A DNA stretch of 53,454 nucleotides, filler included, from Jimgerdemannia flammicorona (taxonomy: Eukaryota), in NCBI GenBank assembly GCA_003990765.1. It is 3 parts of 3 records of this genome, joined end to end, with 100 filler letters (N's around TTAATTAATTAA, not from the genome) between each part and the next. Parts side by side here need not be neighbours in the genome. Positions count along the whole stretch, not along the records: positions 1 to 17,753 come from RBNJ01002422.1; positions 17,854 to 35,604 come from RBNJ01002423.1; positions 35,705 to 53,454 come from RBNJ01002424.1. One strand, written 5' to 3'. How positions within the stretch are numbered: the first letter of the stretch is position 1; each line of letters opens with the position of its first letter. Below the pieces are notes generated by a model. It saw only the letters and a program-made list of their open reading frames with translations. It did no database searches and had not been told where the DNA came from. Shown here one piece after another: positions 2,800 through 51,390 of the stretch. The position numbers were made by a program, and so were the translations under genes.

Positions 2800-4378
2800 T
2801 GTCATGTAATGGTCGCTGAGTCCTTCAAATATGCCAGATTCTCTTCAAGGTGTATCTCTTAGACTAACTTAAGTTTGTTATAAGCAAGTTCTTATTGGAG
2901 TACCTTCCCAAGATCTTATAGTCCTCAAACTTCTTATCTTTAACTATCTTATTATCTCTTAGATTGCTTATAAGGAAGTGTGTGTAGATGAAACCAGAAC
3001 TGACTTTATTTCAGAAGAAATAAGAGGGGTATTTATACAAAATATAATTCAATGGTTACTAAGATATAAAGCTAAATACATATAAATTCCAATAACTAAA
3101 ACTACTAAGTTCCAGGGTCGGCACTGATAGTTGTACAGGTTCAGGATGCTGGTATTATCTAGTGTCACATCAAAATGCCAATGCTGGAACAATTTCGCAT
3201 CACCTCAGAATACAGTGCTGGCATTATCCAGTGTTATATAAGAATACCAGTGCTGGCATTATCCAGTGTTACATGAGAATACTGGTGCTGATGTTATCCA
3301 GTGTAACAAAGAACTTAGAGCAGAAAGTTCAGGACCATGGGGGCTTTGTCCTCATCATCATCATCATCACTGAAGGAGATGAGATCTGCGAATTTGTCAT
3401 ACAGGTCGTGCATCTCACATATGTTGAAGTTGTGCGGGATGACATCATCTCCGATGACATCATCTCATTTGGTGGGGAAATCAGGAACAAGATCTGGAGC
3501 TCTCCAGTCTATGAGGTTCTCTTCCACAAAATAGGGAACAAATGTGAGGTCTTGGGGAGATCTAACCTGGATGCTTGGGCCTTGGAATACTGAGATCAAT
3601 CCTTGCAGAAATTGGTCTGGGTTGTCCTGAAGGATAGGATGCCAGAAGTCTTCTACTTCTTTGCTGTTGAGAGTGATAGTAGACTGGGCTTCTGTAGCCA
3701 CCCTGGCTTCTAGCACATTGATATGGTGGGATGATAGGTCTCTGAAGTCTGAGACTCTAACATACTCCAAGTTGGGGATTGATCATGGTACATGTCTGAA
3801 GATCTGATGGATCTTCTTAGCTGTCCTTGTTTTGCATATATCCATGGAAGTGGCATCTTATAGCTCTTGAGTGCTGGCCTGTGGGATCTCCCAGTAGAGG
3901 AGGTTTCCTATTTCATACTCCTGCCACATTTGGAGGCATTTGATAGTAATAGTGATCCTTGTTTCCATTTCACAGCAATAGAGAATAAAGTGATAAGAGT
4001 CTGCAGTACCCAGGTTGACACTAGGAGTCCTTCTTGAGCAGGTCCCCATGGCTCTTCTGATGTCTTGGAACATCCTTTCCTCAACCAAGATACCTTGGTG
4101 ATTCCTTGACCTTGAGGTTTGGTGGGCAGCAGGCATTTCATTTGTGTTAAGTCTTTGAGCTATTTTGGGATTGGTGGTTCTTGTTAGTTGCTGCTACTGC
4201 AGTTCCTTGATCCTTCTTTTATATTCTTCAGGATGCTTGTACTGTGGTCACAATGACTCACAGTTGGTCATCATTGCTTGTCTCATATGCTGTATAATCT
4301 TCTTGTGCTCCAATCTGGTGGCTTGCAAGGAAAGGCTGTCTTCTGTGCTGATGTCATCATTCTGGGGTCACCATTATA
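2800..4378 (-). repeat. family A 5' LTR (~1.58 kb)
   Basis: Co-linear with 41976-43522 and 25074-26010. Ends T(G/A)TAA..GACA; contains TGTATAAATACCCC, AATAAA and ~5 tandem copies of a TGCTGGCATTATCCAGTG unit (3140-3305). Confidence 0.9.
3315..4136 (-). pseudogene. LTR-encoded accessory protein, family A copy 1 (~273 codons, internal stops)
   Basis: MPAAHQ..WQEYEIGNLL..RTAKKIHQIFRHVP..PILQDNPDQFLQGLISVFQGPSI..FADLISFSDDD..LNFLL* in one frame. Confidence 0.8.
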
Positions 4379-4469
4379 GTATCTAAAGTCTTGGTTAGAT
4401 GCAGGCCACTAAAATTGAGTAAGTTCTATAGTATTAAACAAAAAGAGTCACAATTTGTGCAAACACCTC

Positions 4470-5109
4470 TCTTCTGTACAATTCACATTACACCAATCTC
4501 AAGCAATGGTTTTTGACATAACTTGGAGAAAAGGTATTATAAAAATATCATTGAGCAAGTATTCTGATGAGTATGCTGGGTCAGGTAGACCTGGGGCTTT
4601 CAGCTGGCAGAATGTTGAGAGGGGTTATGGCCTGGGGATGAGGGTCTTTGGAGGGTCGAAGGGTGGCAAGGGCTCTGGAGATAGACCAGTATCTGGTGGC
4701 AATAGGAGGAGGCCAGGCCCCCCAAGTTTTGTGGATAAGGTGAAGGGGAGTGCATGGCTGGCTGGATCTAGGGCTGGTGCTGCTGTGGGGAAAGACAAGG
4801 AGAGCCTAGAGAGGGGGGGAGGTACTCAGGTAGAGGATGCAAGCATAGGTGCTGGAGGTGCTGTGGCTGGGGGAGAGACTGCTGATGGTGGTGTGACAGA
4901 CAATCAGAAAAAAAAAAGAGATGTGATGGTTGATAGAGGTGTGGTGCAGGGGTTCCCAATTTGGAAGGGGGATCTGACTGATAGTATAACTTGGCTGGCA
5001 GTGGCACCATTACTCAGGAAATTGATCTCAGAGTTTGCAGTGACACTGTGCTTCTGAGGCTTGGTAGTGACAGTGAGGATGGTCTTGGGGCTTATCTGGC
5101 TGGGGCTGT

Positions 5110-5110: not shown

Positions 5111-5112
<2 letters not shown>

Positions 5113-5145
<33 letters not shown>

Positions 5146-8100: not shown

Positions 8101-8183
8101 GTGCCAATGTCCAGGCCCATCCCTACTTCCCCCAAACTGACCCTGTCCAAGAATCTCCCAGTGATCTGACCAAGGACACCATT
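5113..8183 (-). mobile_element. non-LTR retrotransposon (L1/Tx1-like LINE) ORF2 remnant with poly(A) tail
   Basis: T28 run at 5113-5140. Minus-strand motifs: endonuclease end WSDH..WHLNSSLL, RT APGEDGL..FWK, LLDQEKAYD, GVPQRDPLSP, AFADD, C-terminal EHWLREC. Cut at 8183 by element B. Confidence 0.88.
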
Positions 8184-8984
8184 TGTAATAACTCTCACTT
8201 CTATCCCTCTCTTATCCTTAGGATAATTAGGGAAGTGGACTATTACTTAGGGACTTAGTACACAATGTGTACCAAGAAGCCTTCAGTTTGAGAAAGCACT
8301 CACTTAAAGTAGTTGTAGCGGTAGTGTCTTATCTTTCAAAGGTCTTTCTGGTTTGCCTTCTGTTTCAAAGATCTTTCTCTTGTGCCCTATTTCGAGAGTC
8401 TTGTTCTTTGCTGTGCACAGACTGAATTTGCCTTGGAATTCAGGTTCAATGGGTTTACTTAAGTCTTTGGGGATATATATACTGGTCTCAGTTCTGGCAG
8501 AAGTTAGCTAGGCTTCTGGAGTTTAGTCAGAAACACTAGAGTCACTTAGATGTCATTACTAAGACTCAGGGGAATGTGTGTGTGTGGGGGGACTTAATTC
8601 TTGTATCAAGGACTGAACTAAAACTGCTTTATTTCAGATAGAAAACTGGGGGGTATTTATACAAGTTGGTCCGCGATTTCTGACTAAGTATGAGTGACTA
8701 ATTTGGTAACTATAATGAGGTTTGTGATTGCGACCTTTATCAGGTGGTTTTTGGTAAAAACAACTTTGTGATCAGGACCTCAATTACTAGGCAATGATCA
8801 ACTGCTGTGGCAACTGTTGCTGCGGCGCTGATTGTTGGGGATAAGCTGGATATCATTTTCCACATTATTTCACATTGTTCATCATTTATATATTGTGCTT
8901 CATTCATATGATGATGTCATTGCTCACCGGGTCACATGATCGCTTGTTGTTCATCATGTCCCATCTGTTTATTATTCTATTACA
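8184..8984 (-). repeat. family B 3' LTR (801 bp)
   Basis: TGTAATA...TATTACA ends, direct repeat of 16518-17328, abuts the PPT. Confidence 0.92.
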
Positions 8985-8997
8985 TCCTTCCCCCCTT
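8985..8997 (-). promoter_or_regulatory. polypurine tract, family B
   Basis: AAGGGGGGAAGGA immediately 5' of the LTR TG on the minus strand. Confidence 0.9.
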
Positions 8998-9805
8998 AGA
9001 AATCAACATCCTCATTGATTGAGAAATTGAGAACCAGGGGAGAGAAAGGTGGGGAATCGTCCTCAGGGGCAGGGGGGGTGGTTGTTGCTGATGGCTCACT
9101 GTCTAGGATGGAGAAGTCAATGAGGTCTGCAAATGGTTCTTGCATTGGAATAGGTGCTAGTGTAGGGGTTCTCCATCTGATGTGGTTGGGGCCATCCAAG
9201 TAGGGCTCTTGATCTTCATGCCTGGGAATATCCATTCGGATAGGTGGTCCTTCAAAGAGGTCAGAGAGGCCTTGGAGTCATTGGTCGGGGTTGTCATTCA
9301 GGAGGGGGCTCCAGTAGGGTTCACAGTCAGTAGACTTGAGGGTAATCCAGGAGTTGGCTTCTTGGGTGACCTTGACTTCTAGGGCATTGACCTCAGAGAA
9401 AGAGAGGTTCTGGAAGTCCTTCAGTTGAATGTAGTTGAGATTGGAGATCGCGAAGGGTGCATGGTATATGATTTGATAGACCTTCTTGGCAAGTCTTTGC
9501 TCGTGCCTATCTAGGTGAGTCCAGTCAGAGACTTGGTCTGTGGGTAGGCCACTTGTATGTTGGAGAAGCTGGTGACTGATTTCATATTCGTGCCAGATTT
9601 CTAGGTGGCTGGTAGCAAGGTAGGCCCTTTCAATAAGTTCATGGCAGTCAAGGACATACTGTCCTAGGTCTGGGCTGGAGAGGTTAAGGGCCTCTGAGTG
9701 GCAGTTCCTTCCTTGGATAGCAACCTGGATGTGTCCAAAGAGGCGGTCAACCTGGCTTGGGAGGGGCTGGCTATGGCAGGCAGTTTGGCAGTGGGTGGCA
9801 GGCAT
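8996..9805 (-). pseudogene. accessory protein at env position, family B (~269 codons, one TGA)
   Basis: ORFs 9278-9886 and 8996-9235 are one frame split by a TGA: MPATHC..WHEYEISHQL..RLAKKVYQII..PLLNDNPDQ*LQGLSDLFEGPPI..FADLIDFS..LNFS. The stop codon overlaps the PPT. Confidence 0.85.
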
Positions 9806-9866: not shown

Positions 9867-9878
9867 GGGTATTTATAC
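9867..9878 (-). promoter_or_regulatory. internal TATA box upstream of the family B accessory ORF
   Basis: GTATAAATACCC, identical to the TATA core of the B LTR, ~62-73 nt before the ATG at 9805. Confidence 0.6.
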
Positions 9879-14163: not shown

Positions 14164-14575
14164 GGTAGATCCAAACTCTTTCTTGCCATGATCTGTCTGG
14201 GAGAGTTCAGGGACTTCTTCAATGGTAAGATCTTGATGGATTTCTTCAATGATTGCTTGGGCAATTCTTTGGCCTACTTTGACTTCAAATGATGTGTCTC
14301 CAAAATTTCACAAGATGACATGGATTTCACCAGTAAATCCTTGGTCAACTACTCCTCCTTCTAGCCCAATGTTGAACTCTTTAGCTAGGCTGCTTTGCTC
14401 AGCAAGGCAGATATATGTACCTTTGGGGGCTTGTATTGTAATTTCTGTTTGCACTGTAGCATTGGTACTTGGTGGGATGGTGAGGTCTTGGCTGCTGTAG
14501 AGGTCATATCCAGCATCAGTTGGGTGGGCCTTAGTGGGGATGGTAGCCTTGTACCATATCTTCTGTACTTTGATG
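14164..14575 (-). other. dUTPase domain between Gag and protease (family B)
   Basis: IPTKAHPTDAGYDL..QSSLAK..GGVVDQGFTGEIHVIL*..GQRIAQ..HGKKEFGST. Confidence 0.9.
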
Positions 14576-16505
14576 ACATTCTCAGGGTTCTTCTTTCCTG
14601 GGCCTTCTCCAATGACAGTAATGTTCTGGTTACCAGGTTCACTTGCTCTATTCTTCTTCTCAGGGCATCTGAATGAGATGTGTCCTGCCTTCTTACAGAT
14701 AAAGCACAATCTCTTTTCCCAGAGCTGCCTCTTTTCATCCTCAGTGGGAGGTCTGGATCCCCTGGAGTTTCGCTGGTTCCTTTGATCATTGTGTAGATCA
14801 TATCTTTGATCATTTCTCCTGGTGGGGTTTCTCCTATCTTGATTATCCTTCTTGTGTTCTTGGTTTCGTGGAGCTTGTGCAGCAAAGATTTCATGAGCTC
14901 TTCTTTGTACTTGGGCAAAGTACCATGAGTAGTGGGGACATCCTTGGGGAAGACCTTGTTCCTTGATCTTCTTGGTGAGCCAGTCTGGTAGAGCTGCAAA
15001 GAGATGGTTGGCTCTGGTACCATTGATGGCCAAATTGTTTTCCTGATAGGTAAGTCCCACAGTTTTGAGATAGGCATCCATTCTGGTGGTAAAGGTCTCT
15101 AGATCCTCTTTGCCATTCTTGTGGAACTTTATCTGGGACAGTTTGTTCCATGTTTCTTGTATGTAGACTGCATTTCGGAATTTGGTCAGTAGCAAGGCCT
15201 TGAGTCCTGGGCCTGCTTTGTAGTCATCCCAACCTGGTCTATTATTGCCAGGTACTTGTCCATTGACTTGAGGGCAGGCTTCCCAGGTTACTGGGTGTTG
15301 TCCCAAGATTCGCCAGAATTCGGCTGCTGTTCCAGTAAAGAATGTGGCTACTGTTTCTACTTGTGCTGCTGATGTGGCAAACAGCTGTTGAAGGGTGCTG
15401 TTCTGGTTGTTGGTGAGCATTCCTATAGGTACTCAGTTGTCATTCCATTGGTTTGCTTGGTAGCCTGTGTCAACTACATTAATGAAGTTTTCAATATCAC
15501 TGTTTTTTCCACTGAATGTTGGGATTCACAAAGTCTTGGTTGGTTTGTTCTGTTCAGCAATCTGTCCTACTATCCCTGCTAGTGCTGCTAGCTGAGTGGT
15601 CAGTGCTGCAATATTGACATCTACTATTGTGCTGACTATTGGTGGTGGGCCTGTTGGGGTAGATTCTCCTGAAGATTGTTCTGCTTGATGGAGTTGTGGT
15701 GCTGTATGACTTGGAGTTACTTGGTTTCCAGATATTAAGTCAAAGAGTCCTGTGAGAGAGGGTAAACCAAACCTCTGTATAGGTGGCTGGATTGGTTCTG
15801 GGGTCTGATCTTCTTGACCTGTAGTTCCTTGGTAAATTCCTAGGCCTGCTGTTCCTTGTTGGCTATTGTCAGACTGGTAATGTGTAGAGTCTTTGTCTGA
15901 CTCCCTTCCCTGATGAGATAGTACATCCTTGTACTGACTAGGTCTTTCAAAGAGAATATCAGTCTCTGGCTGGGTTGATGGGCCTGCTCCTTGTTCAGCA
16001 GTAGGGGATGGATGGCCTGCTTGCTCATTCTCATACCTAGTTATGGCAGAGACATAGTATACAACTAGCCTGTAGTAGAGGGAGGTCTTGGTTGGTGTAT
16101 GATGATACCTGTCAGAGGCAATCCACTTGGCAGCTGCTTCTCTTGCAGCAGGGGGTGTAATATAATCTAAAAAATCCTGGGTGGCTACAGCAGTAGATTC
16201 TGGGGTCCTAGTGGTTCCAATGTGTCCTCGGAGGAGTTCGTAGAACCTATGGCAGCTAACAATATTCCTAAGTCCTGGGTGGTATGTCCTAAAGGCCTGG
16301 TATAGATCCTTGTAAGCCTGGTCAATTACAAGCTGGTGGGTTCTTGGGTCTGTGGTTTCCTGGTACCATCTGGTCCTAATGGCAAGAGCTTCTCTGGCTC
16401 TGGTTTGAGGATCCACAGTTATTTCTGGGGGTTACTCCTGTCCAAGGTTGGTCTTGTTCCAACTTCAGGAGTGTGTTCTTTGGTGCCTTCTTGGCTGGTA
16501 ATCTA

Positions 16506-16514
16506 CTGCTACCA
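16506..16514 (-). promoter_or_regulatory. PBS, compatible with initiator Met tRNA
   Basis: TGGTAGCAG 3 nt after the LTR CA; many eukaryotic tRNAiMet end in ..CUGCUACCA. Confidence 0.7.
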
Positions 16515-16517
16515 AGT

Positions 16518-17328
16518 TGTAATAACTCTCACTTCTACCCCTCTCTTATCCTTAGGATAATTAGGGAAGTGGACTATTACTTAGGGACTTAGTACACAAT
16601 GTGTACCAAGAAGCCTTCAGTTTGAGGAAGTGCTCACTTAAAGTAGTTGTAGTGGCAGTGCCTTATCTTTCAAAGGTCTTTCTCTGAGTTGTCTTCTGTT
16701 TCAAAGGTCTTTCTCTTGTGCCCTATTTTGAAGGTCTTGTTCTTTGGTATACACAGACTGAATTCGCCTTGGAATTCAGGTTCAATGGGTTTACTTAAGT
16801 CTTTGGAGATTTATATACCGGTCTCAGTTCTGGTAGAAGTTAGCTAGGCTTCTGGAGTTTAGTCAGAAATACTAGAGTCACTTAGATATCATTACTAAGA
16901 CTCAGGAAAATGTGTGTGTGGGGGGGACTTGATTCTTATATTAACGACTGAACTAAAACTGCTTTATTTCAGATGGAAAACTGGGGGGTATTTATACAAG
17001 TTGGTCCACGATTTCTGACTAAGTATGAGTGACTAATTTGGTAACTATAATGAGGTTTGTGATCACGACCTTTGTCAGGTGGTTTTTGGTAAAGAATATC
17101 TTTATGATCAGGACCTCAATTACTAGGCAATGATCAGCAGCTATGGCAACTGTTGCTGTGGTGCCAGTTGTCAGAGATAAGCTAAATATCATTTTCTGCG
17201 TCATTCATTTGTATCGTTTGTCACTCGTTATTCATATGCCATGCTTGATTGTATGATGACGTCATTGCCGGGTCATGTGATCATTCGTCTTGTCATGTCC
17301 CATCTGTTTGCTTGTTTGTTCTATTACC
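16518..17328 (-). repeat. family B 5' LTR
   Basis: Direct repeat of 8184-8984; outer ~130 bp visibly more diverged. Confidence 0.88.
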
Positions 17329-23512: not shown

Positions 23513-25064
23513 TTGAGATTCTCTATAAGAAGTATAAGATCCAGCACATTCAGACTACAGCCTATCACCCTCAAGGAAATGGATAAGCAGAAAGGACCAA
23601 CAAGACTCTCAAGAATGTTATTGCCAAGATCTGTGATAACTATGAAAACTGAGATCACTATCTGCCAATAGCATTATCTGCTCTCCGAGATATCAGATCA
23701 CAAAGTACCCACTTTACCTCTCGAGAAATGCTGTTTGGAGAAGAAAGTTCTCAAAAAAACCCTATCATCTAATGGGGATGCTGTATGGAAACATGTGGAT
23801 AGAAAAATATGGAGACTACACCAAATCAGGAAGAAGGCTGAGGATTACATAACGAAGGCACAGGCACTATAATGGAAGAATGCGGAAAAAACCCACAAAC
23901 CCCTGGAGATTATCAAGATAGGAGATAAAGTCCTGGTATATCGGAATATAGTAGAAGCCTCATGGTCACAAAAACTGGAGCCCAAGTGGGAAGGACCTTA
24001 CCTTGTACAAGATATAAAAGGAACCACCTTTTGGCTATGAAAACTCTCAGGTACAATTATCCCCACTACCATCCACTGAAACTGACTCAAGAAGTATCAT
24101 AATCAGTCAATGAAGTAATACTGCTGCCCTCAGAATTACTAGTGCGGCCCAGTGAGTCATTGAAAGACAGTAGTGTCCACTGAGCCACCAACAATGGAAG
24201 AATCCTTTGACAGCATCCAGAGTATAGTGCAAACACACTTATTATGAATCTCACATTTCAAGGCCTATCAGAACTGAACTGAGTTCCAGGAATACTTCAA
24301 GTTGGGACAGCTACTGAATTCAAGACTGAAGATGGGAAAAGAAGACTGGATTAGAGAATGTCAGCTCTCCTACACTCAGATCATAATTGCAAAAAGAGTA
24401 CACAAGTTATTCAAAGATGACAAGTCAGCCTTAGCCCATTTCTAAGGAGTAACCCTAGGAGACTTTGAATATGTCAAGAGACAACATTGGAAGAATGTAA
24501 TGATACAAATAACACAGTATAAGGAAATACAAATTGTAGAAGCCTGGGAATTCGAGTGAATAGGATACTCCTGAGACAAATCACCTATTCAGGAGGAAGA
24601 TGTGACAGCTGATCCAAATTAGTAACATGAAACAGGGGAATTAGACATTTGATTATGGTACCTGAATCCGATTCCCAATATAGCTTAGCTTCATAAATAG
24701 CAGCCATATTCCACAAAGTGCAGAAAATTTAATGTTTGCAAAGATTTAGGAGATGTTAGAATCTTTGCAATCAGTGAAATCTTAGCAGATGTTAAAGATT
24801 CAGCACTTGCAAAATGAGCTATTACTTAGCTACCTTATAGTTAGCAAAACTTGTATAAATAACCCAGTATCTTAGAGTGAATAAACCTCAGATCAAAATA
24901 GTTCAAAAGCAAAGAGATAGCAAAGGAACTAGTAAGCCTGTGGGCAGATACACTTCAAACTCACCCACCCCTGTATCCCAAGGACTTTGAGGAGTCAGAG
25001 AAGATCAAGTATTCAAGATACAGAAATCTGATGTACTTTCAAGAGTAAGTATCCACTATGTTAT
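23513..25064 (+). mobile_element. Ty3/Gypsy family D remnant: integrase C-terminus, accessory domain, PPT, 3' LTR
   Basis: HIQTTAYHPQGNG*AERTNKTL and GDKVLV..KLEPKWEGPY (GPY/F) with no chromodomain. PPT AGGAGGAAGA 24591-24600; LTR TGTGACAG.. from 24601 to ~25064. Confidence 0.8.
24110..24559 (+). pseudogene. accessory-family domain, family D, in the integrase frame
   Basis: Hand translation: ..LKKYHNQSMK*..MEESFDSIQ..FQEYFKLGQLL..IIAKRVHKLFKDDKSALAHF*GVTLGDFEYV..WEFE*. Confidence 0.65.
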
Positions 25065-25073
25065 AATATATAT

Positions 25074-26010
25074 TGTAATAGTGACCTCAGAATGATGATA
25101 TTAGCACAGAAGATAGTCTTTCTTATAAGCCACTAGATCAGAAAGAGGTCATATAGCATGACTCACCCAGGCTATAAGATAAGTAATGATGACCAACTGT
25201 GAGTCATTGTGACTACAGTATAGGTATCTTGAGGAATATAAAAAAAGGATCAAGGAACTGCAGTAGCAGCAACTCAACAAGACCCACCAATCCCAAAATG
25301 CTCAAAGACTTATCTCAAATAAAATGCCTGCTGCTCACCAAACCTCAAGGTCAAGAAACCACCAAGACACCTCAGTTGAAGAAAGAATGTTCTAAGACAT
25401 CAGAAGAGCCATGAGAACCCATGCAAGAAGGACTCCTAGCCTCAACCTAGGTACTAGGGATTCTTATTACTTTATCCTCTACTGCTATAAAATGGAAATA
25501 AGAATCACTATTGCTACCAAATATCTCCAAATATGGCAGGAGTACAAAATAGAAAACCTTCTCTACTGGGAGTTCTCACAGATCAGTCCTCAAGAGTTAC
25601 AAGATACTACTTCTATAGATATATGTAAAACAAGAATAGCTAAGAAGATATATCAGATCTTCAGGCATACACTATAGTTGATCCCCAACTTAGAGTATAC
25701 TAGAGTTATAGACTTCAGAGATCTGTCAGCCTACCATATCAATACACTAGAAGTCAGGGTGGCAACAGAAGCTCAGTCCACTATCACCCTTGATAGTAAT
25801 GAGGTAGTTCTAGTATTCCATCCTCTAGGACAACTCAGATCAATTTCTGTAAGGATTGATCTCTACATTCCAAGGCCCCAGCATCTAGGTCAGACCTCCC
25901 CAAGACTCTACATTTGTTCTCTATTTTGTAGAAAAGAACCTCATATATTGGAGAGTCCTGGATCTCCTCACTCTCCCCACCACTGCCAAACATGATGACA
26001 TCATCAGCAA
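25074..26010 (+). repeat. family A LTR (5' part) with decayed accessory ORF from 25324, interrupted by family C copy 2
   Basis: TGTAATAGTGACC start; WQEYKIENLL..IAKKIYQIFRH..IPNLEY. Confidence 0.85.
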
Positions 26011-39340: not shown

Positions 39341-39407
<67 letters not shown>

Positions 39408-41424
39408 TATATATACAAAAAGTATAAAGCATAAAAAATACATATAGTATGTGACTTGCAATCTTCAGTGGCTGAGGTTAGAGCAAGTGGATCCAAACGT
39501 TCACCTTTAGATACATATTTTTTGATATATGTCCAAGTTTTGAAGGAATCTTATATATTTTCCATACTCTTAAACTTTATATATTGTGAACTTAATTTGG
39601 AGTAAGCAAGGATATTATGTTATATATTTTTCAAGCTTGAAAAAGTGTTCTCTTTCGGTCTTTTTCTGATAACTCTGAAAACTCTTCTTGAAAACAGTTG
39701 GTAACAGCTCATTGTTGCAAAGTCTTGTTAGATGAAGAATCATGTTTTTCATCAATTTGCAGTCTTTTTCCTAATATATGTCAAGCATATGTCTCTTTCT
39801 TTTCTATAGCATTCATTGCTTATATATATAAATTGCAATATATTTTAGTTGGTTCTTCCTGTATTGGCTTCACTTGGTCTTGTGCTTTATGAAGAGCTGC
39901 TCCCACTTGCTCAGGGGTCTTTCTTTTTTTGGCTTTTCTTACTTTGACACTAGCAAGATGCTTGTATTTTCTAGTGACATCTTGTTTTGCCTTCTTGTCA
40001 AGAAGCCTTCATTCTTCATTCTTTTCATCTTCATTATCAGATGAAGAAGATAGAGATGGAGAGGGTGAAAAGTCAGTACAGTTTATACAAAATATACCAT
40101 TTAGTAAAATATGAAATTCTCCCCAAAGAGAGTTTTTAAGAAGAGCAGAAAGGATACCAAAATGTATCAAAGCTACTGATGAAAAGTCTGTATGAGTAAT
40201 GCATTGTTCCAGTATGAGATTATTTTATTTGTTTACAGTCTGGCCTCAGAAAATTAAAAGTAAGTATCTAATTTGGCCTTTGTATACAATTGAGCAATTT
40301 GAGCAGCTTGAGCAATTTGAGCAGCTTTCTAGTCTTTGTAAATAGAAAGGTGAGTAGAGATCAGTGGAGATTCAGTGGTTGCAATGCCCTCCAGTAAAGT
40401 GGATGGGTGGGTAGAGATCAGTGGAGATTCAGTGAGTAGAGATTTAATGGTAATGGTGGGCTTGAGCAATTTGAGCAATTTGAGCAGCTTGAGCTAAGCA
40501 GTTTGAGTAACTTGAGCAGCTTGAGTGATTTGGAAAAGGTTTTTTGGTTTAGCATGAGTGATTTGAGCAGCTTGAGCAGCCTTGAGCAGCTTGAGTGGCT
40601 TGAGCAATTTGAGCAGCTTGAGCAATTTGAGCAGCTTTCTAGTCTTTGTAAAGTAGATGGATGGGTGGAGATTGGTGGAGATTTGGTGGTTGTGATGCTC
40701 TCCAGTGAAGTGGATGAGTAGGTAGAGATTGGTGGAGATTCAGTGAGTGGAGATTCAATAGTAACAGTGGGCTTGAGCAATTTGGGTGGCTTGAGCTGAG
40801 CATTTTGAGTGGCTTGAACAGCTTGAGTGATTTGGAAAAGGTTTTTTGGTTTGGTATGAGTGATTTGAGTGGGTTGAGTAGCCTTGAGCAGCTTGAGTGG
40901 CTTGAGAAATTTGAGCAGCTTGAGCAATTTGAGCAGCTTGAGCAATTTGAGCAGCTTGAGCAATTTGAGCAGCTTGAGCAATTTGAGCAGCTTGAGCAAT
41001 TTGAGCAGCTTGAGCAATTTGTGCAGCTTGAGCAATTTGAGCAGCTTGAGCAATTTGAGCAGCTTGAGCAATTTGAGCAGCTTGAGCAATTTGAGCAGCT
41101 TGAGCAATTTGAGCAACTTGAGCAATTTGAGCAACTTGAGTGATTTGAGCAGCTTTCTAGTCTTTGTAAAGTAGATGGGTGGGTGGAGATTGGTAGAGAT
41201 TCAGTGGTAGAGATTTGGTAGTTACAACACCCTCTAGTGAAGTGGATGAGTGGGTAGAGATCAGTGGAGATTCAGTGAGTTGTAATTCAATGATAATGGT
41301 GAGCTTGAGTGATGAGCAGCTTGAGCAGCTTGAGTGATTTGGAAAAGGTTTTTTGGTTTGGCATGAGTGCTTGAGTGGCCTTGAGCAGCTTGAGTGGCTT
41401 GAGCAATTTGAGTGATTTGAGCAG
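39218..41424 (-). repeat. left arm of a long inverted repeat, with decayed unknown ORF
   Basis: Reverse complement aligns to 48662-50235 + 52726-52862. Confidence 0.85.
40905..41150 (+). repeat. 18-bp (2 x 9-bp) tandem array TTGAGCAGC-TTGAGCAAT
   Basis: About 12 near-perfect units; produces the LKL/EQFEQL/SNLSSL low-complexity ORFs. Confidence 0.95.
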
Positions 41425-41975
41425 CTTGTGGCTTGTGATAATTAACTAATTATACCTATTCTTGCATTTTTGCAAGTTTACAACCTTCTTCCATATATAT
41501 TGTACAAAATTTACCAAAGATTTTTTCTTCTTTTTGCCAACTTACTATCTTTATACTTTTAGTTTTACTTATATTAGTAATTTTAGAAAGACATCTTTCA
41601 TTCTTTCTTATAATAAAAAAACTACATCTTTCATCATCTGATACTATAGTTCTTTTATACTTCTTTTTTTTTTAGTATTTTCTTACTTATTTCCAATATA
41701 ACCATCATTATCTTATAGTTATATAGTTGATGCACATTGCTTGATAAACTTTTTTCTATTTGCAAGATATTTTTTTCTTTTTGCTGTTAAATTTAACTAT
41801 CGCATCTATTCCTCTTCTTTTGCAAGATGTAAGAAAAATTTGTTAGCATTTTCAGAAAGTGAAATATATTGAAGCTGGAATACTTCAATTACATATTATG
41901 GTCCTTCATTCTAGCATAAATCAGCTTCATGAATTCTGTTTGCAATATGCTTAAAGTGTTTAAACTTATATGCAG

Positions 41976-43522
41976 TATAACGGTGACCCCAGAATGATGA
42001 CATCAGCACAGGAGACAGCCTTTCCTTACAAGCCACTAGATCGGAGCACAAGAAGATTATACGGCATATGAGATGAGCAATGATGACCAACTGTAAGTCA
42101 TTGTGACCACAGCACAAGCATCCTGAAGAATATAAAAGAAGGATCAAGGAACTGCAGTAGCAGCAACCAATAAGAACCACTAATCCCAAAATAGCTCAAA
42201 GACTTATCACAAATGAAATGCCTGCTACCCACCAAACCTCAAGGTCAAGGAATCACCAAGGTATCTCAGTCGAGGAAAGGATGTTCTAAGACATCAGAAT
42301 AGTCATAGGGACCTGCTCAAGAAGGACTCCTAGTGTCAACCTGGGTACTGCAGACCCTTATCACTTTATTCTCTACTGCCACAAAATGGAAACAAGGATC
42401 ACTATTGCTACCGAATGCCTCCAAATGTGGCAGGAGTACAAAATAGGAAATCTCCTCTACCAGGAGTTCTCAGAGGCCAGCACCCAAGAGCTATAAGATG
42501 CCACTCCCATGGATATATGCGAAACAAGGACAGCTAAGAAGATCCATCAGATCTTCAGGCATGTACCATGGTCGATCCCCAACTTGGAGTATGTTAGAGT
42601 CTTGGACTTCAGAGATCTGTCATCCCACCGAGTCAATGCACTAGAAGCCAGGGTGGCTACAGAAGCCCAGTCCACTATCACCCTCAATAGTGAAGAAGTA
42701 GAAGACTTCTGGTATCCTATCCTTCAGGACAACCCAGATCAATTCCTGCAAGGATTGATCTCAGTATTCCAAGGCCCAAGCATCCGGGTTAGATCTCCCC
42801 AAGACCCCACATTTGTTTCTTATTTTGTGGAAGAGAACCTCATAGACTGAAGAGCTCTAGACCTTGTCCCCAATTTCCCCACCACAGCCAAACATGATGA
42901 CATCATCAATGACGTCATCCTGTATGACATACCTGAAGCACACGAAGTACATGAAATGTGCAACCTACATGACAAATTCGTGGATCTCATCTTCTTCAGT
43001 GATGATGATGATGAAGCCCCCATGATTCTGAACTTTCTGCTCTAAGTTCTTTATTATACTGGATAATGCCAGCACTGGTATTCTCATGTAACACTGGATA
43101 ATACTAGCACTGGTATTCTGAGGTGATGCAAAATTATTCCAGCACTGGCATTTTGATGTGACACTAAATAATGCCAGCATCCTGAACCTGTACAACCATC
43201 AATACCAGCCCTGGAACTTAGTAGTTTTAGTTATTGGAATTTATATTTAGCTTTATATCTTAGCAACCATTGAATTATATTTTTGTATAAATACCCCTCT
43301 TATTTCCTCTGAAATAAAGTCACTCTTCTCAGTGCAATACATACTTCCTTGCAAGCAATTTAAGAGATAACAAGATAGTTAAAGATAAGAAGTTTGAGGA
43401 CTATAAAACCTTGAGAAGGTACTCCAATAAGAACTTACTTATAACAAACTTGAGTTAGTCTAAGAGATACACCTTGAAGAGAATCTGGCATATTTGAAGG
43501 ACTCAGCAACCACTATGTGACA
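41976..43522 (+). repeat. family A solo LTR (1547 bp), 4-bp TSD GCAG/GTAG
   Basis: Full match to 2800-4378. Removing the LTR plus 4 bp restores the transposase frame (RLTFT|AYKFKH). Confidence 0.9.
42218..43045 (+). pseudogene. LTR-encoded accessory protein, family A solo LTR (275 codons, internal stops)
   Basis: MPATHQ..WQEYKIGNLL..TAKKIHQIFRHVPWSIPNL..DNPDQFLQGL..FVDLIFFSDDDDEAPMILNFLL*; TATAAAA at 42131. Confidence 0.82.
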
Positions 43523-45000
43523 GTAGTAAAAGTAAGTCTCTTATGATGTAAACTCTCATTTTGGTTTGTTCTAAGACTGTTTATATAAAAATCACAATCA
43601 TCAAGTAATATATGTATAATCTTCTTTATGCAATCTTGAGCATCTTGATAGATTTGAATTTCTCTTTCAGTAGTATTTGATAAAGGTTTATATAACTTAT
43701 CTTGTATCAGTGGTGGAATTTGAATAGTAATTAGTTGAAGAATATGATATAGAGAGTCTGTAGTAAAATAGAGATATTTTAATAATCTCATATTGTTTAT
43801 AGTTGATATCTCTTCTCTTAATTGTTTATGAGGAATTTGTAAATAATCTGCTTCAGCTTCTCTATAGTCATCATCTTTATTATCATTATTCTCATTAAGT
43901 TCTATATCTTCTTCTTCTTCTTTTTCTCTTTCAACTTCTTCTTCTTCTTCTTCTTATTCTCCAGTATTAGTTGTTATACTAATAAGAGTATCAGAGATAT
44001 TAACAATATAAGGTAAATTCTCAACTATTAAAATATCATCAGCTTGTTGATTCTGTAAAAACTCTTGCATAATTTGTTGATTACTTTTAGCAATATCCCA
44101 GATAAGATAGAAATTCTGTAAAGAATTATCTATATTATTAGAGTTATTATAATGTGACAAAATAGTATATTTATATTTACCAGTATTTAAAGGAATTAAT
44201 GTTGAGTTATTTTGTTCAGATCTATAAAGAATGTTGAATGGTTGATTGATTTTATATAATACTGATACTGATTGTAATTGTATAATATCACCTTTACAGA
44301 TATCATCTAAATTATCCATAGCTTGAAATAGTGATGTTGTTGTAGTGAGAATAATATCTCTAAATCGGTGAGGATATCCATCAGTACAGTTCTTATGATT
44401 ATCATAGAAAATATATTGTTCCAGATTTTTCAACAGCTTCTGTAGATTAGATTTATCTCTTTTCTGTCAAATATTCATCATTATATTGAGTATAATTTCT
44501 AATAATTGCTTCAGCAAACTTAGCTAAAACTAAGTTTTGTCCACATTCAGCAATAATAAATTTTCTTAAATTTTTCTTTTTGTGAGCAAAATCATGAGTA
44601 TTGAGTATTGTCTCACCATTAAGAAGAATTCCTTGAATTTCTTTAGCTTTTTTGAAAGCTTTTGCATCTGCATCTATACAGAGAGAGTGAATTCAAAGAT
44701 TTCTTCTTTTCATTTCTTTCATGATATTTATCAAAACTTTTCCTGCCATTGTATTACTAGATCCATGAAAGTTTTGATCTCCATGAGATTGAATTATCCA
44801 GTTTCCATTAGAGTCTTTTTGAGATATATCAATATTATTTCTTGATACAATACTTGTTGCAATAATTTTAGATTTTGAGTTTAGCTCCTGTCCTTGTACC
44901 ATTAGAGTTCCAGTATAGTCTTGTGTATTTCTTCTATGTGTCCAAGCTTCATCCCATGTAGCTTGCATAATGATATTATTTTTTGCAAGTAAATTACCTA

Positions 45001-46158
45001 TTTTTTTTTTTTTTTTATAGTCCCTTGGACTCCGTCTTTATTACCAGTCTATGAATAAGTATACAATATCACCACAATATAATATAATATTGCCACCCAC
45101 TATTTGATCCCCATCAGGGGGCCCCTCCCTCCCCACCTCTTCATGTATAAAGATCACCCTCTCACCAACAACTCCAACTCTCCCACCACTCTGACCACAG
45201 ATTTTCACCACCAAGCAGCGCCTCTGACCCCCCTGCAGCCCCCAACCCAGCCACCAGCCTGTCAAGGTATTCTCCATAAGGCACTGCCACCATGATAACC
45301 TGCTCCCCAAGCTCTGTCACCTCTCCTCCTCAAATACAAACAGCCAGTGACCAGCCAGCCCAACCCAAATAGCCAATGCCCAGCCTAAAGTAATCCACTC
45401 CTCTCCTACCCCTCCTACCAATCGATCCCTCAGGTCCTCCCACCTCCCTCGTACATTATCTCCCCTATGCCTCACCCCCAAGCAGTTCCCAATGGCCCAC
45501 CAAAAGTCTCTCAACACCTCATACTCCCCTAGCCAATGTTCTGGTGTCTGTACAAATCCCCCTTCCTGCCCTACATTATGGCACTCCTCACAGTCAAAAC
45601 AGCCCCCTATGACAAGGTGACCGGAGCAGAAGTTAAGCATTACATTTCTCCTCAGTACGCACCACCAAACCACCCAGTACTTCGGTGACATCCACATTTT
45701 CACTGCAGCACTCCAGGTCCAAACCCCATGCTAGTCCCACTCCTCACCAATTCCAACTCCTTGCCAACCACTAGGCCACAGATCTTGGCCTAGTCCCCTT
45801 TGGCACTCGATTCCATCACCAATGTCGAACTCAAGTAGAGGCATGCCTCCCAGAAGAATGCCATCCCAACTCTACATCGCCGGGCCCCAAGCCCTCTCCC
45901 CTTCATCCCCTTACCAGCAAATACCAATGCAGTGCGCCCCCTCAGCGATCCCCCACCAGAAGCCTTTGTATCTCAGTTGGGCAGTATTCTGAAGCCCAAC
46001 AAATGCAAGAAGATTGCCAGTTGAGCCTCTTGGCAACAACCGCCTCTCCCAGACCTTCTGCAGCAGGGGAACCCAGCCCCCTCCCCACAACTCCACCACC
46101 CTCTTAAGCCACCATGCCCTCAAGCAGTGTAGTCATTTGGGGAAGTCCACCAGCCCCA
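45001..46158 (-). mobile_element. 5'-truncated LINE related to the 5113-8183 element, ~16-bp TSD
   Basis: T run 45001-45017; homologous to 5141-6235 (GHLV.GGCFDCEEC.N.GQEGG..Q.PEHWL). TSD GCAAGTAAATTAC(C)TA at 44985-45000 and 46159-46173. Confidence 0.88.
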
Positions 46159-47058
46159 GCAAGTAAATTACTATATTTTTCTCTACTTTTTTGTGCTAGC
46201 AATCTGCAGATATTTCCATGACTTTGTTGTTGTTGATGAAAGGTTTTGTTGCTGTAAATGGAATATCCATTGCTGCAAAGAATTTCCTCATTTCTACAAA
46301 ATCTATAGTTGTAATAGTAGCAGTAACAGCAACTCTAGCTTGAGTTAATGATTGTTTCTTTTTTCTAGTTCCAGTAGAATATATCTTTAGTCCTCTATCA
46401 AATATACTAGATTCTCTACAGTTTGTACAAGTAAATATTAATTCTACAGATGGTGCATATTTTTGCTTATTATATGTAGTGCAAATAATTATTTTCTTTA
46501 CAAAACATTTATTATTTCCACAACTGAAAGTTTTTGTAATAAAGTTGATCAATACTTGCTGACTAATGATTGCCATTCTTGATTCTTCAATAATATCAAT
46601 AGATTGATATTGTTGTTGTTAATTATGTTCTGAACAAATAAATCTTTTATCAGAAGTTTGTTGAAAGTTTTCTATCATCTGCTTTGGTAATATAGGCTTA
46701 GAATGACAAAGATAACATTTTACAAATGATTTGTAAAATTCTGTATCAAGTCCAAACAACTTTGGTCCACTAATATTTTCTTTCAATGCTGAAGTCCATG
46801 GTCCTGATGGCTTCTTACTTTCAAATATCTGATTTATTGAGAGATTTTGTACTGAAAATAATAGTTGTCCCATTGATATAGAAATGTTGAAAGAATATTG
46901 TTGTTGATCTTTTTCTCATTTATATATTCCTGCCTATCCATCTCAAATAATATATTCTTTATAATGTTTTTCAACAATTTTGCCAAAATTTGTAATGTAT
47001 ATAGAATGTTCAATTGTTGTTGTCAGTTTGTATGTATCAGTGATATCTATAATTTGGA

Positions 47059-47820
47059 GCTGGAGGAAAATCAGTAAGCAGGAGGGAAATTGGCAAGCAG
47101 GAGAGAAATCAGCAAGAAGGAGGGAAATCAGCAAGCAGGAGAGAAATCAGTGAGCAGGAGGGGAATTGGCAAGCAGGAGGGAAATCAGCAAGCAGGAGGG
47201 AAATCGGCAAGCAGGAGGGAAATTGGCAGGCAGGAGGGAAATTGGTGAGCAGGAGGAGTAGAAGGGAAATTGGTGAGCAGAGGGAAATCAGCAAGCAGGA
47301 GAGAAATCAGTGAGTAGGAGAGAAATTGGCAAGCAGGAGAGAAATCAGTAAGTAGGAGAGAAATCAGTAAGCAGGAGAGAAATCAGTAAGTAGGAGGGAA
47401 ATCAGTGAGCAGAGTGTAGGAGGGAAATCAGTAAGCAGGAGAGAAATCAGCAAGCAGGAGGAAAATCAGCAAGCAGGAGGAAAATCAGTGAGCAGGAGAG
47501 AAATCGATGAGCAGGAGAGAAATTGGTGAGCAAGAGGGAAATCAGCAAGCAGCAAGCAGGAGGAAAATCAGTGAGCAGGAGAGAAATCAGCAAGCAGGAG
47601 AGAAATCGGCGAGCAGTGAACAGGAGGAAAATCAGTAAGCAGGAGAGAAATCAGTGAGCAGGAGGAAAATTGATGAGCAGGAGGGAAATCAGTGAGCAGG
47701 AGAGAAATTGGTGAGCAGAAGAGAAATCAGTAAGTATGAGAGAAATTGGCTAGCAGGAGAGAATTTGGCAAGCAGGAGAGAAATCGATGAGCAGGAGAGA
47801 AAATAGGGAGCAGGAGAAAA
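47059..47820 (+). repeat. 19-bp minisatellite (AGCAGGAGAGAAATCAGTG-like), roughly 35-40 units
   Basis: Direct reading; purine-rich on the + strand. Confidence 0.92.
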
Positions 47821-50442
47821 AATGACGAGTGAGTAGGAGAATAGTAAGATGAGTAAGCAGGAGAATAGTAAGAAAACAAGTGAGCAAAGTAATAAAACTT
47901 GAAAAGCAAAATAGAGATTTTACATAACTCAAAAAAGCAAAGTGAAATATTGGAGGTTAGAATGAGCAGTGAAATAGAATGAGCAGTGACGTCAAATATT
48001 GGAATATAAATAAAAACAAGATACATTGGACATAGGCACCTAATATGGACACCAGACATTAATTCAATTCTGGCAATAATCTGAGCAGTCCTGAGTCAAG
48101 TAAATTTGTCAAAGTCTCAAATTTAAGCAGGGAAATTTCTGCCAAAATTTTTTTTTATACTCTGATAAATTCTTCCGAAAATTACTTCTTACTCTGATAA
48201 ATGGTCTTCATTACATAGAAATAAATTCCTAAAAATCATAATTATACTTGCTAATATACCTTTTAACTAGTATAAGAATAAAAATATTACTACTATTATA
48301 CTTTTTTTAAAAATATAATATACATTTATATGTATATATGTATCTTCAGCAGAATGAAATAAGAATGAAAATTCTCAGTCTGATAATTGACACATATAGG
48401 TATAGCAGTCCCCAGATAGTGCAGACATAGGAATTGCTCTATGAGCACTAGTGATGAAAATATATCCTGAATCATAGCTTTCCAAAAAACCTTACAGCTT
48501 TGAACTTTTTGGTAAGATATATTCTAATAGGTGGCCAAATATATTAAATATATATTTTATCAATAAAATCACAAAAATACTATGAAATTTATTTCAATCT
48601 GGAAGTATTACATCATATAATTTGAACAGAATAATTAATAATTTCTACACAAAACCTATTCCTGCTCAAATCACTCAAGTCACTCAAATTGCTCAAGCTA
48701 CTCAAGCTGCTCAAGACTGCTTAACCCACTCAAATCACTCATACCAAACCAAAAAACCTTTTCCAAATCACTCAAGCTGCTCAAGCTACTCAAACTGCTC
48801 AGCTCAAGTCACTCAAATTGCTCGAGCCCACTATCACCATTGAATCTCCACTCACCAAATCTCCACCAATCTCTACCTACTCATTTACTTTACTGGAGGG
48901 TGTCGCAACCACCAAATCTCCACTGATCTCTATCTATCCATCTACTTCATAAAGACTAGAAAGCTGCTCAAATTGCTCAAGCTGCTCAAGCTGCTCAAGG
49001 CTGCTCAAGCCACTCAAATTACTTATGCTAAATTAAAAAACCTTTTCCAAATTACTTAAGCCACTCAAGCTGCTCAAACCACTCAGCTCAAGCTACTCAA
49101 ATTGCTCAAATTGCTCAAATTGCTCAAGCCCACCATCACCATTAAATCTCTACTCACTGAATCTCTACTGATCTCTACCCACCCATTCACTTCACTGGAG
49201 GGCATTACAACTACTGAATCTCCACTGATCTTTACCCACTCATCTACTTTACAAAGACTAGAAAGCTGCTCAAATTTCTCAAGCTGCTCAAATCACTCAA
49301 TTGTATACAAAGGCCAGATTAGGTACTTACTTTTAATTTTCTGAGGCCAGACTGTAAACAAACAAAATAATCTCATACCAGAACAACACATCACTTACAC
49401 AGACTTTTCATCAGCAGCTTTGACACATTTTGATACCCTTTCTGCTCTTCTTAAAAACTCTCTTTGGGGAGAATTTTATATTTCACTGAATGGTATATTT
49501 TATATAAACTATACTAACTTTTCACCCTCTCCATCTCTACCTTCTTCATCTGATAATGAAGATGAAAAGAATGAAGAATGAAGACTTCTTGATAAGAAGG
49601 CAAAACAAGACATCATCAGAAAACGTAAGTATCTTGCTAGTGTCAAAGCAAGAAAAGTCAAAAAAAGGAAGATCTCTGAGCAAGTGAGAGCAGCCCTTCA
49701 TAAAGCACAAGACTGAGTAAAGCCAATATAGGAAGAACTAACTGGAATATATTGTGATTTATATATATAAGCAATAAATACTTATATATATAAGCAATAA
49801 ATGCTACAGAAAAGAAAGAGATATATGCTTGATATATATTAGGAAAAAGACTGTAAATTGATGAAAAATATGATTCTTCATCTAATAAGACTTTGCGATA
49901 ATGAGCTGTTACCAACTATTTTCAAGAAGAGTTTCTGGAGTTATCAGAAAAAGATCAAAAGAGAACACTTTTTCAAGCTCGAAAAATATATGGCATAACA
50001 TCCTTGCTTGCTTCAAATTAAGTTCACAATATACAAAGTTTAAGAGCATGAGAAATATGCAAGATTCCTTCAAAACTTGGACATATATCAAAAAATATAT
50101 ATCTGAAGGTAAATGTTTGGGTCTAACTCCAGCCACTTGCTCTAACCTCAGCTACTGAAGATTGCAAGTCATATACTATATGTATTTTTTATGCTTTATG
50201 CTTTATGCTTTTTGCATATATATATATATATATATTGTGACGTAAGCAATTGACAACAGAGTACTGGTGACTGCTAAGATCAGATGACATAATGGCGTGA
50301 CAATCAAATAGACAGCCTGACCCATTAGGTGATCATCCCAAAAGAAGACAAAATGATCCGAGCCAAAATGAAGACCACGTTATTTAAGGAACCATACTCC
50401 GCCTCAGAAATCAGCACTAAAGAACCAAGTACCCACCACACA

Positions 50443-51390
50443 ATGCCTCCCATTCGCCGATCCAACCAGACCTCCCGCCGCTCTACCCCTTTGCCTGGCC
50501 CAAAGACCCTGATCTTTGAAGCTATCAAGAAGGCCATCTGGCGCCCAGATACTTCTGAACACTTGAACTTCTACACCGAAGACCTTGGACACTTCATCAA
50601 CTACTGGTATATAATGACCCAGCAGCTCAAAGACACTACTGAACGAATGACCCTCTGGCATGACTACGAAATCGGACACCGCCTTCGCAATGAGACTCAA
50701 GAAGACGACCGGGAAGGCCTTATTACCGAAATGTTAACCACCAGCCGGCTAATCAAGAGAGCCCTCCGTGTCCATCAAATCTTCCGCCATATTCCCTGGG
50801 CTATAGCACACTTGCAAGGAGTAACAGCTGGCAGCCTCTCCTGCCTTTCAACTGAAGATGCTGACTGGATAGAATCTGAAGTAGCCAACGCTATTGGCAG
50901 CAACCGCGTCGCCATAGGAAGCCAACAAACCGAACCTACTCAGCCAGGTTTCCACACCACCCCACTCCGAGACAACCATCAAGGTCACCTAATGAGTCTT
51001 ATGGAGATATTTGAAGGACCACCCATCACTATAGAGACACCTGTTGGAGCTACCCCAACCACCCACCACCCTGTCAGCCACAATTCACACCTCATAATTT
51101 GGGAACCGAATCAAGAAGAAGCCCAAGAAGTTCCTGTCTTTGAAGAGGAGGCCCAAGAACTCCAAGACCCTGCCTCTGAAGAAACCCCCTCTGACACTGA
51201 AACTGACGAGCCTTCAGAAGAAGAAGAGGAGCAACAGAGAGTCTACCAGTCCTCTGTCCGCATTCAAGCTGTTCAAGGGTTGGAGAATGTTGTTGAAGAT
51301 GACTGGCCACTTTTTTACCCCCTCACCTCTTGGCCGGCGCTTCCCCCTTTTGAGGAGAGATATGATGAAGAAGAAATCACAACCCAGTAA
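50443..51390 (+). CDS. intact accessory-family protein (315 aa from ATG 50443)
   Basis: MPPIRRS..LWHDYEIGHRL..RALRVHQIFRHIPWAIAHLQGVT..PLRDNHQGHLMSLMEIFEGPPI..Glu-rich tail; no stops. Confidence 0.88.
   Translation: MPPIRRSNQTSRRSTPLPGPKTLIFEAIKKAIWRPDTSEHLNFYTEDLGHFINYWYIMTQQLKDTTERMTLWHDYEIGHRLRNETQEDDREGLITEMLTTSRLIKRALRVHQIFRHIPWAIAHLQGVTAGSLSCLSTEDADWIESEVANAIGSNRVAIGSQQTEPTQPGFHTTPLRDNHQGHLMSLMEIFEGPPITIETPVGATPTTHHPVSHNSHLIIWEPNQEEAQEVPVFEEEAQELQDPASEETPSDTETDEPSEEEEEQQRVYQSSVRIQAVQGLENVVEDDWPLFYPLTSWPALPPFEERYDEEEITTQ

Follow-up and report, generated by a model that had tools for sequence, protein, structure and literature searches.

We analysed a 53,454-nucleotide stretch of DNA from Jimgerdemannia flammicorona (assembly GCA_003990765.1), built from parts of three records joined by filler and referred to here as the window, in which an unannotated accessory open reading frame (ORF) recurs in long terminal repeat (LTR) retrotransposons. 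Self-comparison and a Pfam scan of 137 stop-to-stop ORFs of at least 85 aa, taken window-wide, resolved the window as a nest of eukaryotic, fungal-type transposable elements (TEs), and the accessory ORF is found in elements that we denote A to E (Table 1). The original prediction had placed nine such ORFs in the window, and all nine are present where it put them, with A1 and B reading on the minus strand and the remaining seven on the plus strand. A hidden Markov model (HMM) built from non-window sequences only, and run on the six-frame window, recovers exactly these nine loci, while everything else scores -3 bits or less. Our findings point very probably to a selected accessory gene of dUTPase-carrying, fungal-type Ty3/Gypsy elements, held in a slot between pol and the core LTR promoter.

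The accessory ORF is a gene under purifying selection. The ORFs C1 and C2, which come from different insertions, give a ratio of nonsynonymous to synonymous divergence (dN/dS, omega) of 0.16 in frame versus 0.89 and 1.22 in other frames, and their differences are distributed 29/12/55 over codon positions 1/2/3 (chi-square P 4e-7). The comparison of C1 with C3 is alike in this respect, at 0.14 in frame versus 1.19 and 0.98. C2 and C3, with an omega of 0.39 over 29 differences, lie in two LTRs of one element and reflect post-insertion divergence only. Between B and L001, a metagenome locus whose intact 291-codon ORF is 56% identical to B, dN is 0.32 and omega 0.20 (0.16 in the N-terminal domain), at a dS of 1.6 that is saturated. 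In-frame values for the C copies and the B-L001 pair thus lie at 0.14-0.20 and not near 1, in keeping with the functional gene originally proposed. The nine ORFs hold 0-6 internal stops in the accessory frame versus 10-34 in most other frames, with E and C3 free of them, and every internal stop is a TAA, TAG or TGA of the kind expected from C>T/G>A decay. That most copies carry stop codons could be read as the mark of chance ORFs, or of conserved non-coding LTR sequence with no protein-coding gene. This reading is already contradicted by the contrast between in-frame omega and the values of about 1 in other frames, by intact ORFs of 205-342 codons in several divergent lineages, and by protein-level similarity that reaches far beyond DNA similarity; we regard it as extremely improbable.

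The decay itself is heavy, as had been claimed from the sequence. Transitions dominate the differences between LTR copies, making up 44/44 between the C2 LTRs (26011-27019/34600-35604) and 67/75, 139/154 and 121/139 in the other comparisons, which include 8183-8983/16517-17327. In the C2 pair, 40 of the 44 differences fall in CpG or CpA/TpG contexts. Judged by type and context, this bias is the signature of a process like repeat-induced point mutation (RIP) or of methyl-cytosine deamination.

The accessory proteins of A, B and E, originally aligned by eye, are homologues by blastp, with E-values of 1e-30 to 1e-51 for A-B, 1e-6 to 2e-20 for A-E and 4e-21 for B-E; tblastn agrees, and at the level of sequence comparison we consider this homology certain. 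The central motif that the eye had picked out holds as well, since L175, D177, N178, L183, L186, F190, G192, P193 and I195 (E numbering) are invariant in 5/5 aligned sequences. The same motif, L-x-DN-x(4)-L-x(2)-L-x(3)-F-x-GP-x-I, occurs in the relatives P0012, P0013, P0034 and L001. D ends before the motif, matching only the core of the family (HMM positions 50-157), and C has no clear DNPDQ..FEGPPI.

The membership of D and C was examined by profile-profile comparison (hhalign) with a family profile that included divergent database members and left D out. D matches this profile with a probability of 92% (P 6.6e-7), and C with 54% (P 1.3e-4), in an alignment of 117 collinear columns that runs from both N-termini, the same region that had been matched by eye; with D included in the family, C rises to 71% (P 3.6e-5). 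Reversed-sequence controls gave P values of 0.17 and 0.49, and none of 60 column shuffles for each protein reached the real score (C, 38.8 vs a maximum of 19.6; D, 48.6 vs 16.2). The external HMM gives scores of 133-321 bits to A, B and E, 18.4 to D and 9.1-12.2 to the C copies, and in a decoy search of 21 window-equivalents the best domain scored 2.7 bits, placing all three C copies above every decoy. The originally proposed kinship of D and C with the other versions is supported insofar as each joins the family; compared directly with each other, the two give no significant match (P 0.037). D is very probably a decayed relative of the family on this evidence. C appears likely to be a distant member, with an alternative in which it is an unrelated gene in the same U3 (the upstream part of the LTR) slot that resembles the family through similar helical composition. 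A blank blastp search of C against the other accessory ORFs, a shallow 5-sequence profile that did not detect it (P 0.049), its insignificant match to D, its 9-12 bits with the HMM, the unclear motif, 235 final residues unique to it and an unusable structure model (pLDDT 31) all favour that alternative. We nevertheless consider it doubtful in view of the hhalign matches, which extend over 106-118 collinear columns from near both N-termini, the shuffle and decoy results, and the slot, TATA spacing and acidic tail that C has in common with the family.

In the protein, an N-terminal domain of about 130 residues is followed by the short DNPDQxLQGLxxxFEGPPI motif, then by a linker that varies between members, and the C-terminus is an acidic tail. 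AlphaFold2 (AF2), run on a 14-sequence alignment, models an all-helical N-domain (residues 20-150) with a predicted local distance difference test (pLDDT) score of ~90 and a 40-residue helix, the rest being of low confidence; the AF2 model of C was set aside. The acidic tails noted for A, B, C and E are indeed present, the last 60 residues carrying a net charge of -6 to -16 in 11 of 12 members with D as the exception, and in many tails the acidic run is followed by proline and hydrophobic residues. Likewise, the absence of a transmembrane segment, on which the protein had been judged unlike env, is seen in all 12 members (maximum Kyte-Doolittle 19-residue mean 0.46-1.09). A match to an already described domain was sought in Pfam, in the PDB and with AF2 models in Foldseek, and no confident one emerged. 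For the accessory ORFs in the window, Pfam returned no family at E<=0.01, and at E<=1 none was common to members (0/14); a sequence profile search of the PDB gave 0 matches at E<=1, Foldseek against PDB and BFVD none at E<=0.001, VIA-align against 48,161 chains a best Z of only 3.4, and the ESM Atlas no usable match for E or C. The gag regions of A, B and C do not match the family HMM, and capsid chains are absent among the fold matches listed.

Relatives are scarce in databases. The A/B/E profile retrieved only 11 proteins at E<=0.001 from 1.84 billion representative proteins, and word-based searches added a few further close relatives; intact ones are 205-342 aa long. The 22 members listed from ten database clusters all derive from JGI/IMG, ENA or read-archive metagenome sources, and these listed members are unnamed or called 'hypothetical protein', with none among them from NCBI or UniRef. 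Metagenome contigs yielded one relative, L001, among 317 pattern matches, and viral contigs yielded 0 among 71.

Every copy of the gene sits between pol on its 5' side and, on its 3' side, a conserved core promoter, GTATAAATA[AC]CC, with AATAAA. This 12-mer has nine matches in the window, namely eight core promoters, each 3' of its ORF and followed by AATAAA within ~30 nt, and the promoter-like site of ORF B. What differs is the side on which the polypurine tract (PPT) falls. In C the LTR start TGTAAG comes after the PPT, with the first codon of the ORF 295 nt into the LTR; in A the likeness of the three copies starts at the same base, 242 nt before the ATG, against three different flanks; and in E the distance from the LTR start TGTGACG to the ATG is 207 nt. 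In these three lineages the LTR starts before the ORF, which places the gene in U3. The PPT of B overlaps the stop codon, with the TG start of the LTR immediately after it, a layout identical in L001, and in D the PPT and LTR start come ~30 nt after the ORF. The gene thus stands before the PPT in B, D and L001 and after it in A, C and E. We also considered placing ORF B within a longer LTR with a truncated 5' copy, a placement excluded by the PPT and TG start that come directly after the stop codon, in L001 too. The original prediction had counted three different positions, where we find one slot relative to pol and the core promoter and two relative to the PPT; its assignment of A, C and E to U3 and of B to the interval between pol and PPT was correct, and D, which it had set apart, lies like B between integrase and PPT. 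It had also counted five Gypsy lineages, of which at most four are shown, as E is a solo LTR without pol and its core promoter is shared with D (88% identical over 67 nt). The Gypsy assignment of E comes solely from this promoter. Because D and E carry the gene on opposite sides of the PPT, the PPT has switched side between related elements. Complete elements around the slot, with gag-pol, LTRs, primer-binding site (PBS) and PPT, are present for B and C; the slot of A is seen in a 5' LTR beside gag, protease (PR) and dUTPase, that of D after integrase (IN), and that of E in the solo LTR only. Structurally, the lineages differ only in the point from which plus-strand priming proceeds. With the PPT 5' of the gene, as in A, C and E, the gene belongs to U3, enters both LTRs in each round of reverse transcription and persists in solo LTRs. 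With the PPT 3' of it, as in B, D and L001, the element has one internal copy.

The accessory gene is probably an RNA polymerase II (Pol II) unit of its own, judging from its flanking motifs, and would end at the poly(A) signal of the R region. A TATAWAW motif lies at -72 to -97 of the ATG at 8 of 10 loci (A1, A2, A3, B, C2, C3, D and L001), covering 5 of 6 lineages, against a background of 9-10% of 100-nt windows; E has only TTATTTAAGG at -62. The promoter-like site upstream of ORF B, GTATAAATACCC, is the same 12-mer as the core LTR promoters, which hints that the accessory promoter of B may be derived from an LTR promoter. Tandem repeats lie beside the ORF in U3. The predicted transcript would run from the accessory TATA through the ORF to the poly(A) signal just past the core promoter, giving a monocistronic mRNA of ~1.2-1.5 kb. 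An LTR of the U3 type would then unite promoter, ORF and terminator, leaving the two solo LTRs, A3 and E (the latter with its ORF intact), as potential genes.

Table 1. Elements, accessory ORFs and associated signals in the window.
Feature	Position	Strand	Details
A			Third element type, 1.58-kb LTRs; A1 is a 5' LTR adjoined by gag, PR and dUTPase, running to window position 1; A2 is a fragment, A3 a solo LTR
A1 5' LTR	2800..4378	-	Accessory TATAAAA ~4223; core promoter GTATAAATACCC at 3038, then AATAAA; LTR end ...ATGACA, then PBS-like TTGGTACCC
ORF A1	3315..4136	-	273 codons, 3 internal stops; inside A-type 5' LTR; HMM score 254-355 bits
A2	25067..26010	+	A-type LTR fragment with ORF A2 at 25324-26010; no PPT before the fragment; cut by C2 insertion at 26011
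A3	41976..43522	+	Solo A-type LTR; TATAAAA 42131; ORF 42218-43045; core promoter 43285; no PBS after LTR end; 35-bp repeats x3.3 at 43063-43179
B	LTRs 8183-8984 and 16517-17327	-	Complete chromovirus
ORF B	8996..9805	-	269 codons, 1 internal TGA; between pol and PPT
ORF B promoter-like GTATAAATACCC	9867..9878	-	72 nt upstream of start codon
B PPT AAGGGGGGAAGGA	8985..8997	-	Overlaps ORF B stop codon; LTR start TGTAATAG directly after
B 3' LTR	8183..8984	-	Core promoter 8662
B 5' LTR	16517-17327	-	Core promoter 16997; then PBS TTGGTAGCAG at 16506-16515
C	LTRs 21450-23512, 26011-28081 and 34600-35604	+	Second chromovirus, two copies, 2.07-kb LTRs
ORF C1	21738..22835	+	365 codons, 2 internal stops; in 3' LTR (21450-23512) of copy 1
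ORF C2	26305..27402	+	365 codons, 1 internal stop; in 5' LTR (26011-28081) of copy 2; TATATAT ~26224, core promoter 27592, PBS 28084
ORF C3	34890..35604	+	238 codons, no stop, cut at 35604; in 3' LTR (34600-35604) of copy 2
C copy 2 PPT AAAGCTAAGAAGGGGAGAG	34580-34598	+	Precedes LTR start
D	23513-25066	+	Fragment beginning mid-integrase
ORF D	24110..24559	+	149 codons, 6 internal stops; directly after integrase C-end, same frame
D PPT AGGAGGAAGA	24591-24600	+	Then D LTR, starting TGTGACAGC, region 24591..25066, cut by A2; core promoter 24853
E solo LTR	50236..52725	+	2.49 kb, TGTGAC...GTCACA, within (AT)n run; intact ORF E 50443-51390, 315 codons; core promoter 51798; 121-bp repeat x1.8 at 51460-51679

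The accessory versions do not follow the relationships of the elements that carry them. B and C share one domain order (gag, zinc knuckle, dUTPase, PR, reverse transcriptase (RT), RNase H, IN and chromodomain) and are 28-36% identical in gag, 50% in RT and 62-64% in IN, whereas the gag of A has no match to that of B or C at E<=0.1 and its PR, followed by dUTPase, is 22% identical to the PR of B. Even so, the accessory protein of B is 34-39% identical to those of A and undetectable by blastp against those of C, and the core promoters of B and A are 84% identical over 38 nt. These identities bear out the original observation that two related chromoviruses carry unlike accessory versions and that B is nearest to A, an element with a different gag. 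A fair reading, based on sequence, is that a 3' module comprising the accessory gene and the U3 core has been exchanged between lineages. Unequal evolutionary rates stand as an alternative because the RT and IN of A lie outside the window.

Several further features of the window were recorded. A dUTPase domain is encoded in A, B and C (1-831, 14311-15432 and 29749-30966), which follows the protease in A but in B and C stands between the Gag zinc knuckle and the protease, and that of A is 37-38% identical to those of B and C. Positions 17754-17850 read TTAATTAATTAA flanked by runs of N, which looks like an artificial contig joint, so C-type copy 1 only appears to be 5'-truncated at 17854, where the assembly, and not the element, has its edge. 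A 357-nt repeat, 83% identical between 4464-4819 and 17396-17752 and in the same orientation, sits 69-86 bp outside the 5' LTR edge of A1 and of B, both minus-strand elements, with spacers that bear no likeness to each other; a shared target preference is possible, as is chance. No tRNA genes, which are possible integration targets, were found in the window. Inverted repeats of ~1.5 kb (39403-40936 vs 50227-48662, 87% identical), packed with 9/18-bp TTGAGCAGC repeats, enclose a minus-strand fragment of a Mutator-like transposase (46199-46618; Pfam E 1.2e-5), a tandem array of a 19-bp unit at 47058-47802 (38.7 copies) and the A3 solo LTR; the interval 39403-50227 is probably a large Mutator-like element with long terminal inverted repeats. 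The segment 5125-6235 is related to 45001-46159 (72% identical). A run of 63 A at 39341-39403 ends a 3.8-kb stretch that interrupts the C2 3' LTR at 35604; a non-LTR retroelement or a retrocopy may have left it as its tail; the ORFs of at least 85 aa in this stretch include no RT domain recognised by Pfam.

As to function, the gene product may be a nuclear factor that works in trans, through the adjacent U3 repeats, to raise the expression of its own family, a proposal we make tentatively. It is a guess from the position beside U3 repeats, the helical domain with its acidic tail and the parallel with retroviral regulatory genes, and such a regulator would act in the manner of those of complex retroviruses. 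A broader possibility, which we hold to be rather unlikely, is that every LTR, solo LTRs included, is a complete gene feeding the family with a trans-acting regulator, that the cassette and its core promoter move between unrelated Gypsy lineages by recombination during reverse transcription, and that the PPT flip sets one or two copies per element. We incline, if only slightly, towards our best explanation taken as a whole, and a number of observations count against it. Sequence and fold searches recognised no DNA-binding or activation fold, and function is poorly predicted by an acidic tail. The TATA boxes are known only as motif matches; C1 and E have none in strict form, and that of D lies within integrase coding sequence and may be chance. 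One contig set (X1, share 0.06) covers only parts of the ORF, and these thinly, but the core LTR heavily, and is uninformative on transcripts. On the side of selection, dS is saturated between B and L001, and the signal between A1 and A3 is weak (omega 0.35 vs 0.75 and 0.80, codon positions not significant); on the side of homology, the scores of C are weak and its likeness is confined to the first ~130 residues. Finally, the D domain may have been made as part of Pol, which would fit a role in replication or targeting better than one in regulation.

This last point leads to the proposal that the protein is a cofactor of replication or integration, its helical domain binding Gag, integrase or a host chromatin factor and aiding assembly, nuclear entry or target choice. 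The SH3-like C-end of the D integrase and ORF D lie in one frame, separated only by decay-type TGA, TAA and TAG codons (23513-24559), and in its ancestral form the D protein may have extended integrase at the C-terminus, replacing the chromodomain that B and C carry at this place; the lack of a recognised transcription-factor fold in the N-domain is also in its favour. Yet in B and C the separate gene exists alongside a chromodomain; in most lineages the ORF stands apart from pol, at a distance of 200-640 nt, and has a TATA of its own; and D is a single decayed copy with six stops in which the fusion is only putative. We therefore think a cofactor unlikely. Little different in standing, and if anything less likely, is a counter-defence factor that would block host silencing by small-RNA, DNA-methylation or RIP-like pathways, by analogy with the VANC proteins, which counter host silencing for VANDAL transposons. 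The transition-only CpG/CpA decay that has struck these TE copies so heavily is in favour of such a factor, and expression from every LTR, solo ones too, would suit family-wide protection. Against this, Pfam searches gave no similarity to known suppressors, and the gene-carrying copies are themselves mutated, so that protection is not evident. A putative promoter inside the element, with a dosage that would rise with LTR number, recalls the internally initiated p22 of Ty1, which limits Ty1 copy number, and a similar self-restriction factor could be imagined here; the protein does not appear to be derived from gag, as the family HMM has no gag matches in the window, nothing else points to restriction, and this idea seems very unlikely to us.

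Genes comparable in placement are known from retroviruses. The tas/bel gene of foamy viruses is a 3' accessory gene that reaches into U3, with an internal promoter and an acidic activation region; the gene described here resembles it in placement, putative internal promoter and acidic region, and differs in belonging to an element without env; no sequence or fold likeness to it was found. The coding sequences of sag of mouse mammary tumour virus (MMTV) and of lentiviral nef lie within or overlap U3, and both genes, which belong to vertebrate retroviruses, are expressed through splicing or LTR promoters, with no TATA of their own. Sag is a membrane glycoprotein, whereas the accessory protein has no hydrophobic segment and no Pfam match to Sag or Nef. 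Likeness to Sag, Nef, Tas or VANC, the analogues invoked in the original prediction, was seen in none of the sequence, domain or fold searches made.

Among retrotransposons, plant Retand/Tat Gypsy elements are described as carrying extra genes of unknown function between pol and the 3' LTR, often by tandem repeats, for which a regulatory role was proposed from retroviral analogy (Vicient 2025, PMC11963269). As far as that account goes, those ORFs are antisense and hold a TRP28 domain, whereas the ORF reported here is sense, has no Pfam match and lies inside U3 in three lineages. Novikova et al. 2010 (PMC2864245) drew fungal chromodomain Gypsy elements, some with dUTPase, as carrying an 'add. 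ORF' whose function is unknown; their text describes it no further, and it may or may not correspond to the present family and position. In bdelloid rotifers, unrelated LTR lineages with dUTPase share ORF3 types, which have been read as modular gene sharing (Rodriguez et al. 2017, PMC5408684). The parallel with our elements is one accessory ORF type across LTR lineages that also encode dUTPase, but the rotifer ORF3s are env-like, GDSL esterase or DEDDy exonuclease proteins and the protein here is without a recognisable domain. Extra ORFs after pol, ORFs in U3 and ORF types common to several lineages are thus already known. We found no account of this accessory family, or of a self-promoted sense ORF inside a fungal LTR, in a search outside which lay most subscription journals and Repbase/GyDB. 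What appears to be new, on sequence grounds, is an orphan accessory family, in sense orientation and apparently self-promoted, that fungal-type Gypsy elements carry within U3 or immediately ahead of it.

The usual picture of LTR retrotransposons is one of gag-pol machines whose LTRs serve purely as control DNA, and a selected gene in U3 of several lineages departs from it. Pipelines that mask LTRs hide a real gene family, and solo LTRs may still code for protein, possibly active in trans. The lineages with the PPT before and after the gene offer a natural experiment on the entry of accessory genes into LTRs, the step by which complex retroelements are set apart from simple ones. Should the protein be a regulator of transcription or silencing, it would give a handle on the persistence of TE families in genomes where repeats are heavily mutated, and if each LTR is a complete gene for a trans-acting regulator, this gene would be to fungal retrotransposons what regulatory genes are to complex retroviruses.

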